The position numbers and the translations under genes were made by a program. From Dickeya solani IPO 2222 (GTDB lineage: Bacteria > Pseudomonadota > Gammaproteobacteria > Enterobacterales > Enterobacteriaceae), in NCBI RefSeq assembly GCF_001644705.1, contig NZ_CP015137.1, positions 1,140,001 through 1,172,000 on the forward strand: a DNA stretch of 32,000 bases, written 5' to 3'. A model generated the notes under the pieces. The model did no database searches. It had not been told where the DNA came from and saw only the letters and a list, made by a program, of their open reading frames with translations. Of the stretch, positions 1,087 to 24,757 are shown one piece after another; the stretch's first letter is position 1; each line of letters starts with the position of its first letter.

Positions 1087-2673
1087 ATGCGTTTGAAAAA
1101 TCTCTCCATCCGCACCGGTCTGCTAACACTGCTGACCGTCATCACCCTATTGTTACTGCTGGTCAGCGGTATGGGGATTCAGGCCATCAACAAGAGCCGT
1201 GCCTCCCTGACGGCGCTCAATCAGATTCAGGGAGAACAGCTGGGCGCGTTAATGAATGGTTATAACCTGACGTTACGAGCCAGAGCCTCCGCCACGCTGG
1301 CGGTGCGCAAAATCGAAATCGGTTTGCTGGATGTCGGCGTCAAAGAGACCGAAAAGCTGGAAGGCTATGTGCAACAGTCGGAAAAGGATATTCGTCAGTT
1401 TAACAGCGTGGGAACCAACGGCGAGCAGGAACAGAAACTGGCGCAACAGGTGTTAAAAAGTTATCAGGATTACCTGAATCAGGGGCTGAAGCCGATGATG
1501 GACTCCCTGAAAAAGCAGTACACCGACGAATATTACACCTTGCTGGAAAACAACCTGACGCCCCTGAGCGACGCGTTTGATAAATCCATCCAGAACTTCC
1601 GCAGCTACTCCCAGCAACTCTCCGAACAACATATCCAGCAGGCCAATAACAACGAACGGCTGATGCTGATGCTGATCGCGTTTGCCTGTCTGCTGTCTCT
1701 GCTGCTGGTGCTGCTGGGCTGGCTGGCGTTGCGCCACATGCTGCTCAAACCGCTGGATTACGCGATTGAACAACTGGAACACGTGGCCTCCGGCGATTTG
1801 ACCCGCCGCATTACTCAGGGCGGCAACAATGAACTGGGGCGGCTGAACGACGCCATCGAGCGCATGCAATTAGCGCTGCTGGATTCGGTCAGTCAGGTGC
1901 GTGACGCCAGCCACCAGATCGATCAAGGCAGCCGTGAGTTGTTCAGCGGCAACCGCAATCTGGCGGAACGGACCGAAGAGTCGGTCGCGGCGCTGGAACA
2001 GACCGCCGCCAGCCTGGAAGAACTGAGCGCGACGGTTAAACGCAACGCCGACAACGCCGAACTGGCGCATCAGTTGACCAACCAGGTTTCCGATACCACC
2101 GATCGCGGCAACGAATCCGTTAACTACGTGGTGGAAAAAATGCGTGAAATCGCCGCCAGCGCCAAACGGATCAGCGATATTCTCGGCGTTATCGACGGCA
2201 TTGCCTTCCAGACCAATATTCTGGCCCTGAACGCGGCGGTGGAAGCGGCCCGCGCGGGCGAGCAGGGCAAAGGCTTTGCGGTAGTGGCCGGCGAAGTGCG
2301 GAGTCTGGCGCAGCACAGCGCCCAGGCGGCCAAAGAGATCCGCACCCTGATCCTGGATTCTCAGTCCCATGTGTCGGAAGGGCTGGATCTGGCCGCCAAA
2401 GCCGGTACCACCATGGACGACGTGGCGGAAGAGATCAACCGTATCACCAGCCTGATGAAAGAGATCTCTTACGCCTCTCAAGAGCAACATCGCGGCATCG
2501 AACAAGTGAATATCGCCTTCACCCAGATAGACAAAGTGGCTCAGCAGAATGCCTCGCTGGTCAAAGCGTCCGCCGACACCACCCAGTCGCTGGAAGAACA
2601 ATCTCGCCAGTTGGTGCAGGCAATGGCCATGTTCCGTATCGAAGACCACACCGCGCTGCTGCAGGCGCGCTGA
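1087..2673 (+). CDS. Methyl-accepting chemotaxis protein (two TM segments, periplasmic helical sensor, HAMP, MCP signalling domain)
   Basis: 528-aa ORF with an AGGAAA SD before ATG 1087. TM1 is LLTLLTVITLLLLLV and TM2 is LMLMLIAFACLLSLLLVLLGWL. It carries the conserved MCP hairpin GIAFQTNILALNAAVEAARAGEQGKGFAVVAGEVRSLA. There is no C-terminal NWETF pentapeptide. Confidence 0.9.
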   Translation: MRLKNLSIRTGLLTLLTVITLLLLLVSGMGIQAINKSRASLTALNQIQGEQLGALMNGYNLTLRARASATLAVRKIEIGLLDVGVKETEKLEGYVQQSEKDIRQFNSVGTNGEQEQKLAQQVLKSYQDYLNQGLKPMMDSLKKQYTDEYYTLLENNLTPLSDAFDKSIQNFRSYSQQLSEQHIQQANNNERLMLMLIAFACLLSLLLVLLGWLALRHMLLKPLDYAIEQLEHVASGDLTRRITQGGNNELGRLNDAIERMQLALLDSVSQVRDASHQIDQGSRELFSGNRNLAERTEESVAALEQTAASLEELSATVKRNADNAELAHQLTNQVSDTTDRGNESVNYVVEKMREIAASAKRISDILGVIDGIAFQTNILALNAAVEAARAGEQGKGFAVVAGEVRSLAQHSAQAAKEIRTLILDSQSHVSEGLDLAAKAGTTMDDVAEEINRITSLMKEISYASQEQHRGIEQVNIAFTQIDKVAQQNASLVKASADTTQSLEEQSRQLVQAMAMFRIEDHTALLQAR

Positions 2674-19985: not shown

Positions 19986-20041
19986 TATACCCTTCATACG
20001 TCAAGTTGCAGGAAGGCGGCAACTCGAATTACTTTGGGTAA
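19986..20041. repeat. Mini-ERIC/IRU-like palindromic repeat (internally deleted form)
   Basis: TATACCCTTCATACGTCAAGTTGCAGGAAGGCGGCAACTCGAATTACTTTGGGTAA. The ends and arms resemble, from memory, the ERIC termini (TATACCC...AATTCGAGTTGCAGGAAGGCGGCAA / GCAACTTGAAGTATGACGGGTATA). It is an imperfect palindrome around AGTTGC-N9-GCAACT. Confidence 0.6.
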
Positions 20042-21105: not shown

Positions 21106-21197
21106 AAAAAAAAACCTACGCATCCGCGTAGGTTGGTGCAATTTGAATGGTTCAATGTGGAGAACACATCGATTTGTCACCCATCAATACCTCTGGG
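21106..21197 (-). ncRNA. omrA: OmrA/OmrB-family Hfq-dependent small RNA (single copy)
   Basis: The minus strand reads CCCAGAGGTATTGATGGGTGACAAATCGATGTGTTCTCCACATTGAACCATTCAAATTGCACCAACCTACGCGGATGCGTAGGTTTTTTTTT. The 5' seed CCCAGAGGUAUUGAU.GGUGA matches E. coli OmrA/B, as does the 3' end UUGCACCAACCU.CGCGGAUGCG.AGG+U9 (terminator CCTACGC-GGAT-GCGTAGG). It lies between aas and galR in the same orientation as in E. coli. A TAGAGT -10 sits 7 nt upstream of the 5' C. Confidence 0.9.
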
Positions 21198-22299: not shown

Positions 22300-22594
22300 G
22301 CAGTGACTTCCCTGAGAGCGATGAGCCCATCCTGCCCGTATGGGAGCAGCCGGCATATTGCCCGACGTCATTCCCGATACCGGGCATCCGCATCCGGCGC
22401 AGGATGACGGCCCGTTGAAGAAACACGAACATAACGTATGACAAACACTCTATTTACGCTTCACCAATATTGCTGCCTGATGGCGTATCACGACGCGCCG
22501 GCGGTGAAAGTTGCGATCCCCGCCTCTTGCGGCTACGGCCTAATTCCGTGACACTTTGGCAGTCGCTTGATTCAGCGCACCATTTTCACATTAA

Positions 22595-22805
22595 GAGCCT
22601 ATCCCAGTAGGCGTTATTGGCGCAGCCAGTTTGGACTCGGACAGAGCGGAGACAACATGCAACGCATGTTGAACGGACAAAGCAATTTGTCCGGCCCAAC
22701 GGGCGAGCGCAGCGAGTAAACCGGAGCGTACACATAGTACGTGAGGATTTCGAGCACTGCCCAGGGCCAAAATGGCAAGTGAAATAGCCCTAATGGGATA
22801 GGCTC
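22595..22805. mobile_element. 211-bp MITE-like element with 12-bp perfect terminal inverted repeats and a TAA target duplication
   Basis: The left end GAGCCTATCCCA (22595-22606) is the exact reverse complement of the right end TGGGATAGGCTC (22794-22805). TAA flanks both sides (22592-94 and 22806-08). The interior is a string of short hairpins (CAACATGC-AAC-GCATGTTG, GGACAAA-GCAA-TTTGTCC, CGTAC-ACATA-GTACG). It has no coding capacity. Confidence 0.65.
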
Positions 22806-22826
22806 TAAGAACAACAGGAAACCCCC

Positions 22827-23837
22827 ATGGCCACCATTAAGGATGTCGCCAGGTTGGCGGGCGTGTCGGTCGCAACCGTGTCACGCGTCATCAACGATTC
22901 GCCGAAGGCCAGCGCACAGGCGCGCAGCGCGGTACTGCAGGCCATGCAGCAGTTGCAATACCACCCGAACGCCAACGCCCGCGCGCTGGCCCAGCAATCT
23001 ACCGAAACGCTGGGGCTGGTGGTATCCGACGTGTCCGATCCGTTTTTCGGCACTATGGTCAAAGCGGTGGAGCAGGAAGCCTACCGCACCGGCAACTTCC
23101 TGTTGATTGGCAATGGTTATCATGTGGCGCACAAGGAACGTCAGGCGATCGAACAGCTGATTCGCCACCGCTGCGCGGCGCTGGTGGTTCACGCCAAGAT
23201 GCTGCCGGATGAGGAACTCACCCAACTGATGGAACAGATTCCGGGCATGGTGCTGATCAACCGCATCCTGCCGGGTTATGAAACGCGCTGCGTGGCGCTG
23301 GATAACCGCTACGGCGCCTGGCTGGCGACCCGGCACCTGATCCTGCAGGGGCACCGCCAGATCGGCATCCTGTGTTCCAACCACGCCATCTCCGACGCCG
23401 ATGACCGTCTGGCCGGCTACCGGGACGCGCTGGCCGAACACGCGATTCCGCTGGATGAGCAGTTGATCGCCTATGGCGAACCGGACGAAAGCGGCGGCGA
23501 AGCCGCGATGATCACGCTGCTGGAACGCGGCCGCCCGCTGACCGCGCTGACCTGCTACAACGACCCAATGGCCGCCGGCGCGCTGGCGGTGCTGAGCGAT
23601 AACGGTATTGAGGTGCCGCGGGATATGTCGCTGATCGGCTTCGATGATGTGCTGCTGTCGCGTTACCTGCGCCCGCGCCTTACCACCATCCGCTACCCGA
23701 TTACCGCGATGGCGACGCAGGCGGCGCAGATCGCGCTGGCGCTGGCCAACGACACGCCGTTACCCAACGCCATCAACCTGTTCCACCCGACGCTCATTCG
23801 CCGACATTCGGTCGCCGGTTTGAATAATGGGCACTAG
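22827..23837 (+). CDS. galR: Galactose operon repressor GalR (LacI family)
   Basis: MATIKDVARLAGVSVATVSRVIN.SPKAS ... YHPNANARALAQQ.TET.GLVV.DVSDPFFG.MVKAVEQ.AY.TGNFLLIGNGYH is colinear with E. coli GalR through to PTL.RRHSV. An AGGAAA SD precedes the start. Confidence 0.95.
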   Translation: MATIKDVARLAGVSVATVSRVINDSPKASAQARSAVLQAMQQLQYHPNANARALAQQSTETLGLVVSDVSDPFFGTMVKAVEQEAYRTGNFLLIGNGYHVAHKERQAIEQLIRHRCAALVVHAKMLPDEELTQLMEQIPGMVLINRILPGYETRCVALDNRYGAWLATRHLILQGHRQIGILCSNHAISDADDRLAGYRDALAEHAIPLDEQLIAYGEPDESGGEAAMITLLERGRPLTALTCYNDPMAAGALAVLSDNGIEVPRDMSLIGFDDVLLSRYLRPRLTTIRYPITAMATQAAQIALALANDTPLPNAINLFHPTLIRRHSVAGLNNGH

Positions 23838-23869
23838 GTAGTGAGACGTTAGGACGTAACAAATGCTGG

Positions 23870-24130
23870 TAAGCCCCTTTAGCTAAAGGTGATGGTTTTA
23901 CGGCGTCAAAAACTGTGCTGAGGCAAGCGACTTCGCCGGGTGAGCCGCACGGACGCGGCGAAAGCCCGTGCCGCGTCTGACAAAAACGTTGGGAACGTTT
24001 TTGAACAGCGTTTACGCTGGCCCGCAGGGCGAGCCCCAGGGATGGGGCGAGTAACCGCGTCACGGGCGGCCCGAACAGCGAAGGTGAATGCCGAAGGAAC
24101 CGCGTTAGCGGCACAGTTTAGCCCCTAGCC
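23870..24130. repeat. Hairpin-array repeat related to the MITE at 22595..22805 (boundaries approximate)
   Basis: It shares a colinear core with the upstream element: GAC-[hairpin]-GAAC-[hairpin]-GGCCC-N3-GGGCGAGC...GCGAGTAA(A)CCG...TAGCCC(C)TA. The stems differ in sequence but remain self-complementary (AAAAACGTT-GGG-AACGTTTTT; CAGCG-TTTA-CGCTG). Further hairpins include GCCGC-ACGGAC-GCGGC, CCCC-AGGGAT-GGGG, CCGC-GTTA-GCGG, and the 14-bp palindrome CCTTTAGCTAAAGG. Confidence 0.45.
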
Positions 24131-24283
24131 AGTGGTCAAGGAGAGGCGGCGTTTGAGCCTCTTCTTGTCGTGCGTGCGATGAAATAGCAGAGAAATGACA
24201 CTGGTTGTCCAGCACGAAACCATTCACCGACCGTATAAAAATCACTATCCACGAAGCAGTAGGCTGTTTGCAAACAGCGCGGA

Positions 24284-24757
24284 TTACCTTAACGCGCGGT
24301 GATACAACCGCACCGTTTTATCGGGGTAATCCGGCGCATCGCCCAGATAACGCCAGCCGTGGCGTTCGTAGTAACCGCTGAAACCGGCGTAGAGATAGAG
24401 ATCGTGGAAGCCGCGCTCGCGGCTGAACTCGACCACAAAGCGCTGTAGCTCAGCGCCCAGACCGCGATCGCGGTAGTGTTCGTCCACATAAAGCGCCGCC
24501 AGCCAGGGGGTCAAATCCTGTCGGCTGATCAGATCGCAGCGCCATAGCCCGACGGTGCCGACCAGTTGCTCACCTTCCAGCGCCACAAACGTCAGCGGCA
24601 ATGCCTGTTTGTCCATGCTGTGATGCACCACGCTGGCAAAAAAGTCCCGGCTCAGACCCTCGCCAAACGCCTGCCACAGCCAGTCGACGACCTGCGCCTC
24701 AAAGTGCGGGTAATCCGCCAGATAGCCTATCGTTGCCTTAGACTCTATCGTTGCCAT
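24284..24757 (-). CDS. GNAT-family N-acetyltransferase
   Basis: 157 aa. It has the acetyl-CoA-binding core LAALYVDEHYRDRGLGAELQRFVVEF (Q/RxxGxG/A type). The start lies 3 nt after the stop of the upstream GntR gene, so co-transcription is likely. Confidence 0.8.
   Translation of the reverse strand: MATIESKATIGYLADYPHFEAQVVDWLWQAFGEGLSRDFFASVVHHSMDKQALPLTFVALEGEQLVGTVGLWRCDLISRQDLTPWLAALYVDEHYRDRGLGAELQRFVVEFSRERGFHDLYLYAGFSGYYERHGWRYLGDAPDYPDKTVRLYHRALR

Follow-up and report, generated by a model that had tools for sequence, protein, structure and literature searches.

The window analysed here, a 32,000-nt stretch of the Dickeya solani IPO 2222 genome (contig NZ_CP015137.1, positions 1,140,001 to 1,172,000, forward strand), contains two arrays of hairpins, one on each side of galR, which encodes a LacI-family repressor. 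Both arrays hold a copy of the same module, a miniature, non-coding and structure-conserved DNA unit of about 66-76 nt. This module is the conserved core of the Rfam family RtT RNA (RF00391), which is also present outside tRNA operons; in the window it lies outside any tRNA context and is nested in other repeats. The two arrays have probably arisen by independent insertion of this one non-autonomous mobile module into two pre-existing intergenic repeats. That the insertions were independent is indicated by copies of the upstream host, a MITE (miniature inverted-repeat transposable element), in which the site is empty, by copies of the same MITE with the module at another site and in opposite orientation, by an extra module in one otherwise nearly identical locus, and by the fact that the two hosts are unrelated to each other.

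A four-hairpin module on both sides of galR

When the sequence from 22400 to 24400 is read on the + strand, both flanks of galR display the ordered array GAC-[hp1]-GAAC-[hp2]-GGCCC-GNA-GGGCGA-[hp3]-GAGTAA, with the positions given in Table 1. The + strand of the module folds into four adjacent hairpins. Three of them (hp1, hp2 and hp3) are free to vary in sequence and length while their pairing is kept, and the fourth, GCCC-GNA-GGGC (P3), is essentially invariant, as are the single-stranded linkers G|AC, GAAC, GA and GAGT|AA, where bars mark junctions. The string GGCCCNNNGGGCGAGC occurs twice in the window, compared with 0.09 occurrences expected, and the 3' flanks of the module copies read AACCGGAGCG and CCGCGTCACG. 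An earlier, sequence-only reading had described the ordered core on both sides of galR and on the same strand, although it overlooked hp3, the third variable hairpin, which is present in both copies. The core stands: both copies are recovered by a covariance model (R2) for which 24 copies from other genomes, and no window sequences, were used, at 84.9 bits (E = 4.6e-22) for copy 2 and 35.6 bits (E = 2.2e-8) for copy 1. R2 finds no further site in the window, the next match having E = 0.16, and a model built from 24 diverse module copies (R1) gives exactly two strong sites there, copy 2 with 88.4 bits and copy 1 with 42.8 bits. A weak module-like match at 23886-23963 (+), with E about 0.15 for both models, adjoins copy 2 upstream and overlaps the hairpin hp0 described below; it could be a decayed second module or a chance match.

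The two arrays had been taken for two members of one repeat family. What they have in common is instead the module of 66-76 nt, nested in two unrelated hosts; homology of the whole elements was considered and rejected, as the MAFFT alignment on which it would rest was misaligned and the arrays are homologous over the module alone.

The variable stems covary. Among the 24 seeds, 96.4% of the pair cells are standard pairs, compared with 72% in shuffles and about 33% with slid partners, and there are 124 double-change cells compared with 36 in shuffles. For 119 distinct copies the standard pairs amount to 92.7% (67.5% in shuffles, 32-43% with slid partners) and the double-change cells to 578 (192 in shuffles). 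Helix by helix, hp1, hp2 and hp3 covary and the GCCC/GGGC helix is invariant. A parser that requires hairpins selected the seeds, the model served to fit the large alignment and many copies are related, but the conclusion is robust to these caveats because the diversity of stem sequences is visible to the eye. The pair cells and double changes in excess of shuffles among the 119 copies thus support the view that conserved linkers and covarying stems reflect selection on a folded single strand. G.T is commoner than A.C in the stems (41-53 compared with 16-25, about 2:1), and the loops are mostly GNA triloops closed by C-G; both speak for folding as a single strand. C-GNA-G triloops are exceptionally stable DNA mini-hairpins. 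The earlier suggestion of a structured RNA, or of DNA recognised as hairpins, holds in spirit, and both of its alternatives are retained here.

The family is large. The pattern GGCCCNNNGGGCGAGCN{3,15}GCGAGTAA, scanned over contigs of one genome per species, matches at least 120 loci, and all copies have hairpins 5' of the pattern, spaced by (G/T)AAC. Nearly all named organisms among the matches listed belong to the Gammaproteobacteria (Pseudomonas, Xanthomonadales, Enterobacterales including E. coli, Chromatiales and Methylococcales), with Thioalkalivibrio, Methylocaldum and Alcanivorax among the genera. R1 finds 124 sites in 100 sources, about a dozen of them outside the original pattern. A phage origin was also considered and dropped, the pattern being without a match in 2.9 million viral contigs.

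The consensus of RF00391 includes the whole module, as hp1-(G/A)AAC-hp2-GGCCC-GNA-GGGCGA-hp3-GAGUAA. Among the matches listed, about 20 pattern loci have an intact tRNA gene 90-140 nt upstream of them and on the same strand, and the tRNA-linked copies are without exception downstream of the tRNA gene and in the same direction. Such sites are labelled 'RtT sRNA' in RefSeq, an example being the proK-linked copy of E. coli. The Rfam RtT model performs as expected on positive controls (96 bits for locus L088 and 101 bits for locus L037), and the R1 match of L088 falls inside its RtT match. Among 18 loci tested, however, Rfam calls RtT at tRNA-linked loci only and at none of the 11 non-tRNA copies. 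The window copies behave like the latter: there is no RtT match in 22400-24400 at E <= 10 and none in the whole window at the gathering score of 45 bits, and ARAGORN finds no tRNA gene in the 32 kb. Another Rfam family, AaHKsRNA22 (RF02902), aligns with copy 1 end to end over model positions 1-101 with 35.3 bits (E = 2.5e-4), below its cut-off of 39.8, and has no match to copy 2. The view that the element belongs to no named family must therefore be revised, since its core is that of RtT and copy 1 is close to RF02902, even though the window copies fail both models.

Hosts, empty sites and the insertion rule

The upstream host (host 1) has termini of 18-nt inverted repeats (22594-22611 and 22789-22806) that are 94% complementary, and its predicted fold has an energy of -101 kcal/mol (z = -9.1). 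It is short, non-coding, bounded by terminal inverted repeats (TIRs) and represented by many dispersed copies, as is characteristic of MITEs; its outer flanks are TTA|...|AAG, with no clear TA-type target duplication. The extent 22595-22805 first given for the upstream element fits this host, at 22594-22806, and not the shared unit. The same applies to the distal motif TAGCCC(C)TA, which had been counted as part of the shared unit: upstream it is the right TIR of the MITE, and downstream it belongs to the other host and is not conserved in the Pectobacterium relatives of that host.

Copies of the host 1 MITE without the module, 147 bp long and with 88-92% identity, occur on plasmids of Klebsiella, Citrobacter and Enterobacter. 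Altogether the MITE matches 103 plasmid records as well as copies in Kosakonia and Leclercia, and the plasmid copies adjoin unrelated genes. Comparison of empty and filled MITE defines the breakpoints: MITE positions 1-59 correspond to window positions 22594-22652, and MITE positions 59-147 to 22718-22806. The empty site is GACAGCGCGCAG|AAACCGGAGCG and the filled site in the window is ...GGAG[AC...GAGT]AAACCGGAGCG, with no target duplication. The same MITE in Salmonella (L129), Kosakonia (L015) and Leclercia (L118) carries the module beyond its central GTAC hairpin, on the opposite side, and in opposite orientation; at that second site the MITE of the window, GCTCG|AAATCCTCAC, is unoccupied. 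About 1.3 kb from the Kosakonia MITE, at 1241-1327 (-) of L015, there is a C4 antisense RNA of the P1/P7-phage type (RF01695, 71 bits).

The downstream host (host 2) is unrelated to host 1 and sits between galR and a convergent acetyltransferase gene. Its alignment with loci of three Pectobacterium species, none of them orthologous to the galR locus, places it at about 23905-24245, so that the block of about 23870-24130 originally marked out does not coincide with the element. It has a hairpin of its own, hp0, with GGA in the loop. This hairpin is conserved in Pectobacterium, with covarying stems (e.g., GGTGAG-CGAC-AAGGAT-GTCG-CGAAAG) and GGA loops there too. The hp0 arm parallels the GGAUGAG-hp0-GGUUCGA arm of RtT, and on this resemblance the two may be homologous. 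GGTGAG/GGATGAG-stem-CGAAAG resembles the hammerhead ribozyme core (CUGANGA ... GAAA ... NUH, three stems), but that reading was rejected: C3 and U4 are unconserved, an A15.1-U16.1 pair is missing and Rfam gives no match. Imperfect direct repeats of about 17-25 nt bracket host 2 (about 23905-23925 and 24228-24245), as they do in L090 and L103, where those of L103 are, for example, TCCGGCGTAAAAAATTATGCTGAGGAG and TCCGGCATAAATATAACTAAGGGAG; they could be attachment-site-like or a target duplication, or mark the start of a second tandem unit.

The locus was compared between the window and six assemblies that encode an identical GalR, which we take to be Dickeya solani and relatives. Five of the six match the window at both elements nearly base for base. 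The sixth, L124 (GCA_025643375.1), carries an extra, divergent module of 68 nt in host 2, and its aligned flanks are otherwise nearly identical to the window. R1 recognises this insert with 31.8 bits (E = 2.6e-5). It is absent from the window and the five other genomes, and the Pectobacterium copies of host 2 are empty at the same position. In the galR 3' flank of L124, just outside host 2, there is also a 14-nt tandem duplication, TAAAGGTGATGGTT, at about 2557-2584 (window about 23883-23896).

Table 1. Positions in the window of galR, the two module copies and their hosts (hp, hairpin; ORF, open reading frame)
Feature	Position	Strand	Description
Host 1	22594-22806	+	213 bp = 147-bp TIR-bounded MITE + inserted module; ends 20 nt before galR ATG
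Segment inserted relative to empty MITE	22653-22718	+	66 nt; register ambiguous by one A (alignment and BLAST breakpoints)
Module copy 1, upstream of galR, short class	22651-22719	+	GAC-hp1-GAAC-hp2-GGCCC-AAC-GGGCGA-GC/GCA/GC-GAGTAA
Copy 1 GAC	22651-22653	+	
Copy 1 hp1	22654-22670	+	AACATGC/AAC/GCATGTT
Copy 1 GAAC	22671-22674	+	
Copy 1 hp2	22675-22692	+	GGACAAA/GCAA/TTTGTCC
Copy 1 GGCCC-AAC-GGGC	22693-22704	+	
Copy 1 GA, then hp3	hp3 22707-22713	+	GC-GCA-GC
Copy 1 GAGTAA	22714-22719	+	
galR (LacI-family repressor)	22827-23837	+	336-aa ORF; Pfam LacI and Peripla_BP for the identical protein; outside both elements
Host 2	23905-24245 (boundaries approximate)	+	~340-nt structured element, AAAAACTGTGCTGAGG to GCACGAAAC...TATAAAAATC; aligns with Pectobacterium L085, L090, L103
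RtT-like 5' arm in host 2	23939-23964	+	GGTGAG-CCGC-ACGGAC-GCGG-CGAAAG; hp0 hairpin, GGA in loop
Module copy 2, downstream of galR, long class	23979-24054	+	hp1 loop GGG/GGGA; hp3 GCCCCA-GGGA-TGGGGC
Copy 2 GAC	23979-23981	+	
Copy 2 hp1	23982-24002	+	
Copy 2 GAAC	24003-24006	+	
Copy 2 hp2	24007-24018	+	
Copy 2 GGCCC-GCA-GGGC	24019-24030	+	
Copy 2 hp3	24033-24048	+	GCCCCA/GGGA/TGGGGC
Copy 2 GAGTAA	24049-24054	+	
Unoccupied site GGCAC|AG	24110-24116, junction 24114/24115	+	L124 there: GGCAC[ACCATTTTGCAACGCAAAATGGAACAGCGCTTGCGCTGGCCCGCAAGGGTGAACCCGTCAGGGTTCATA]ATTTAGCC

From these comparisons an insertion rule can be formulated. Insertion is precise and oriented, the orientation being obeyed at both sites of the host 1 MITE; the module has no terminal inverted repeats and leaves no target-site duplication. 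It usually joins its host at G|AA(A/T/C)CC, many such sites lying in the loop, or at the foot, of a palindrome that was already there, and in 48 of 129 copies GAGTAA is followed directly by TCC. Copy 2 conforms, with the junction TCTG|AC...GAGT|AACCG. Other copies are nested in dRS3-like palindromes, in BoxC-like palindromes and in stems that resemble the T-arm of tRNA. For the tRNA-linked copies the same junction can be located in the tRNA itself. In 7 of 11 of them GAGT is followed by an exact repeat of the 19 nt with which the adjacent tRNA ends, AATCC...CCA, which means that the junction is TTCG|AATCC in the T-loop, a perfect instance of the rule. The 19-nt duplicates and the duplicated terminators led us to consider a miniature integrative, CIME-like element with the tRNA 3' end as attachment site, an idea that was given up because the module splits the halves of the T-arm and the bare module enters hosts other than tRNA genes.

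Several tRNA-linked loci have a more complex arrangement. The spacers of the serV-argVYZQ cluster in E. coli, Shigella and E. ruysiae (L017, L022, L027, L113 and L117), each about 275 bp between tRNA-Arg genes, contain a module that lacks hp1, GGATAAC-hp2-GGCCC-GAA-GGGCGA-hp3-GAGTAA, and behind it a second copy of the tRNA-Arg 3' end (e.g., L022 2832-2965); in L017, L022 and L027 they give no Rfam RtT match at the gathering threshold. At the proK locus of E. albertii (L088 6268-6530) there is an approximately 1.5-fold repetition of a unit of tRNA 3' end, terminator and RtT 5' arm; the second RtT stops after GGTTCGACTCGA, where it is interrupted by a REP/BIME (Rfam naRNA4), and many E. coli genomes have one proK unit fewer than L088. 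Two complete RtT-like units, each ending with a tRNA 3' end and a terminator, follow tRNA-Ser(GCT) in tandem at L045 4682-5017.

Proposed mobility and its alternatives

How could such a module move? When the open reading frames of 130 neighbourhoods, 3 kb either side of pattern-matching copies, are clustered all against all, no recurrent protein family (transposase, integrase or reverse transcriptase) appears, only local synteny. From the absence of a conserved neighbour gene follows that the module is non-autonomous. It would then be mobilised in trans as a folded single strand. Our preferred, and still tentative, proposal is that single-stranded DNA is handled by an enzyme of the HUH/Y1 type, in the style of IS200/IS605 or RAYT, by analogy with the elements discussed below; the target would then be GGWTT|, as read on the bottom strand to the left of the element. 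In favour of such handling are the lack of inverted ends and of target duplication, oriented insertion beside a short motif, ends rich in hairpins, and the prevalence of C-GNA-G triloops among the loops. Once inserted, the module would simply be co-transcribed with its surroundings, which here are the galR leader and the galR 3' region, and would form a stable, structured segment of RNA, as RtT does in E. coli, presumably with no dedicated role in the control of galR.

There are observations that this account of insertion and mobility does not accommodate easily. No mobilising enzyme has been identified within 3 kb, on either side, of any pattern-matching copy, and the variable hairpins differ between copies far more than is usual for the sites of a single transposase. 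The junction of the L124 insert is CA(C/T)|AAT and not G|AAWCC, with a 3' end that overlaps host sequence, and this is compatible with microhomology-mediated copying. Classic RNA tetraloops (UUCG, CUUG and GNRA) among the loops, and long variants of hp1 and hp3 with loops of the CANGGAUG type, argue for selection at the level of RNA. The covariation counts depend in part on the model-fitted alignment, and the target logo is inflated because copies of one lineage are not independent, as host and module can spread together.

One alternative is that the module is primarily a functional RNA domain of the RtT kind, the long form of which may bind or titrate CsrA/RsmA with two or three GGA hairpins, and that it spreads by hitch-hiking on MITEs, on REP-like repeats and with duplications of tRNA operons. 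We regard this as unlikely. Among the distinct long variants, GGA lies in the loop of 22 of 42 for hp3 and of 19 of 28 for hp1, often as CA-NGGA-UG, which is the repeat motif of CsrB/RsmZ and matches CsrA/RsmA sites; the hp0 loops of host 2 have GGA as well. Copy 2 together with host 2 has GGA loops in hp0, hp1 and hp3, but copy 1 upstream of galR has none, like other copies of the short class, and no Csr/Rsm family of Rfam matches. RtT is reported to be a processed RNA from transcripts of tRNA operons, where all linked copies lie downstream of the tRNA gene on its strand, yet its function is still described as unknown in the literature. The UUCG, CUUG and GNRA loops and the excess of G.T over A.C in the stems speak for this view. 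With a crude ORF heuristic 86 copies are sense and 57 antisense relative to flanking genes, a mild sense bias, and set against it are 26 copies that lie between convergent genes, so that orientation is only weakly biased. What a hitch-hiking RNA domain leaves unexplained is the bare unit of 66-68 nt at two sites of one MITE in opposite orientations, as well as the extra copy in L124. Mobility as DNA and effects as RNA are, at the same time, not mutually exclusive.

Another possibility is that no dedicated machinery is involved, and that the module is copied when its own very stable hairpins, and palindromic targets, provoke template switching during replication or microhomology-mediated repair, with short junction homologies (G... 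and ...AA/AAWCC) that guide the join. Wherever a junction could be resolved, module ends and host bases do overlap: the empty site already has the G and the AA of GAC...GAGTAA, and in L124 the host CATAA stands in place of GAGTAA. The targets are palindromes, no partner gene accompanies the copies, and the 5' arm of tRNA-linked units resembles the T-arm in inverted form, the product to be expected when a template switch happens at a palindrome. Against this, the junction register is remarkably constant over very distant taxa and hosts, the boundaries of the module are sharp and its orientation rule is fixed, and sporadic errors of repair are not expected to generate a family so large and so uniform. 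Repair copying appears improbable. Still less probable, and largely refuted, is the idea that the arrays are vertically inherited cis-regulatory elements of galR, serving as operator, leader or terminator. Both elements are near-identical in all seven Dickeya-like assemblies compared and the upstream one ends 20 nt before the start codon, but the module occurs at no fewer than 120 unrelated loci, the host MITE sits on plasmids beside unrelated genes, host 2 is found at non-orthologous loci in Pectobacterium, and a simple scan reveals no promoter-like or terminator-like signal that stands out in or near either element.

For galR the consequences of the insertions, which remain our favoured explanation of the arrays, seem to be small. 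With 20 nt between its end and the start codon, the upstream element is probably part of the leader or promoter region of galR. The scan of the galR flanks for promoters and terminators, simple and uninformative as it is, gives nothing of note, and there is no sign that the two elements regulate galR or destabilise the locus. It had been suggested that direct copies on both sides make galR a substrate for deletion or amplification; this is unsupported, because the identity between the copies is confined to blocks of 8-9 nt and the locus is intact in the seven genomes compared. Upstream of the galR region, at 21107-21197 (-), the window also has a full-length gene for the OmrA/OmrB small RNA (RF00079, 85 bits).

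Relation to known systems

A wider claim is possible, though we think it less likely than not: that the RtT core constitutes an unrecognised class of mobile element, about 65-80 nt long and without genes, inverted ends or target duplication, defined by its structure and about 30 invariant bases, which homes to G|AAWCC sites in hairpin loops across the Gammaproteobacteria. If so, the classic RtT/tyrT units and the serV-argVYZQ spacers of E. coli would be by-products of insertion into the T-loop sequence TTCG|AATCC, and the mobiliser would be a widespread enzyme, of the host or selfish, that acts on folded single strands. An RtT core outside tRNA operons, exact empty and filled sites and a T-loop-like junction together suggest a concrete and testable origin for RtT units. 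Current annotation misses the small structured element, as Rfam calls only its tRNA-linked form, and the leader and 3' region of galR carry selfish structured inserts that may affect the stability of the transcript. As far as could be checked, the literature consulted contains no description of so small a structured module whose target resembles the T-loop.

The closest parallels in mode of insertion are the PATEs of IS200/IS605 and the REP/REPIN sequences, which depend on Y1 HUH enzymes. They, too, are non-autonomous, lack TIRs and target duplication, insert in one orientation beside a short specific sequence, have ends dominated by hairpins that act as single strands, and are abundant in Gammaproteobacteria. 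They differ in that no tnpA or RAYT gene lies within 3 kb of the pattern-matching copies of the module, which is much shorter than known PATEs and has hairpin sequences far more variable than a typical transposase-bound end. A REP consists of one imperfect palindrome, 35-40 nt long and headed by a conserved GTAG. Identification with REP/BIME was rejected, because the module is an array of four hairpins whose conserved linkers are different.

Host 1, on the other hand, recalls ERIC/IRU as a TIR-bounded, intergenic palindrome of the MITE type into which some 66 nt have been inserted at a defined internal position. Sharp in 1997 and Wilson and Sharp in 2006 are said to have described ERIC copies with internal insertions of about 70 bp; a link between those insertions and the module was considered and was not seen among the plasmid ERIC matches. 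No similarity between host 1 and the 127-bp ERIC consensus could be detected, and the module itself is without TIRs. The identification of host 1 as ERIC/IRU was dropped after a BLAST comparison of the host MITE with an ERIC sequence taken from PMC2759123, in which no match was longer than 7 nt (E = 1). Elsewhere in the window, at 19986-20040 (+), a short remnant resembles ERIC. It reads TATACCCTTCATACGTCAAGTTGCAGGAAGGCGGCAA and then CTCGAATTACTTTGGGTA, and over its initial 37 nt it is 84% identical to the ERIC left end; it looks like an internally deleted ERIC.

Among RNAs, CsrB/RsmZ sponges share with the long-class modules and host 2 the presence of several GGA-loop hairpins, often CANGGAUG. 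The modules have two or three GGA sites per unit and none in the short class, and they are dispersed in many copies, unlike a single regulated gene. AaHKsRNA22 (Aggregatibacter sRNA 22) resembles the module in its consensus, AC-hp1-GAAC-hp2-GGCCC..GGGGCGA-hp3-GAGUA. The idea that this RNA might be an intervening sequence of 23S rRNA was also entertained; the loci examined showed no rRNA context. The nearest relative is RtT itself, whose repeat units were described between 1978 and 1991. It is reported to be a processed RNA released from the transcripts of tRNA operons, with a function described as unknown. In the RtT model the core is flanked by X-GGAUGAGAAC-hp0-GGUUCGA as 5' arm and by AUCC...CCACCA as 3' arm, the latter being a duplicate of the final ~19 nt of the neighbouring tRNA, and RtT lies in tRNA operons, whereas the window copies have neither a nearby tRNA nor the 3' arm. 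The 5' arm is absent at copy 1; 15 nt before copy 2, host 2 has GGTGAG-hp0-CGAAAG, which is a resemblance only. What RtT and the window copies share is the ordered core, which is non-coding in both and equally unexplained in function.

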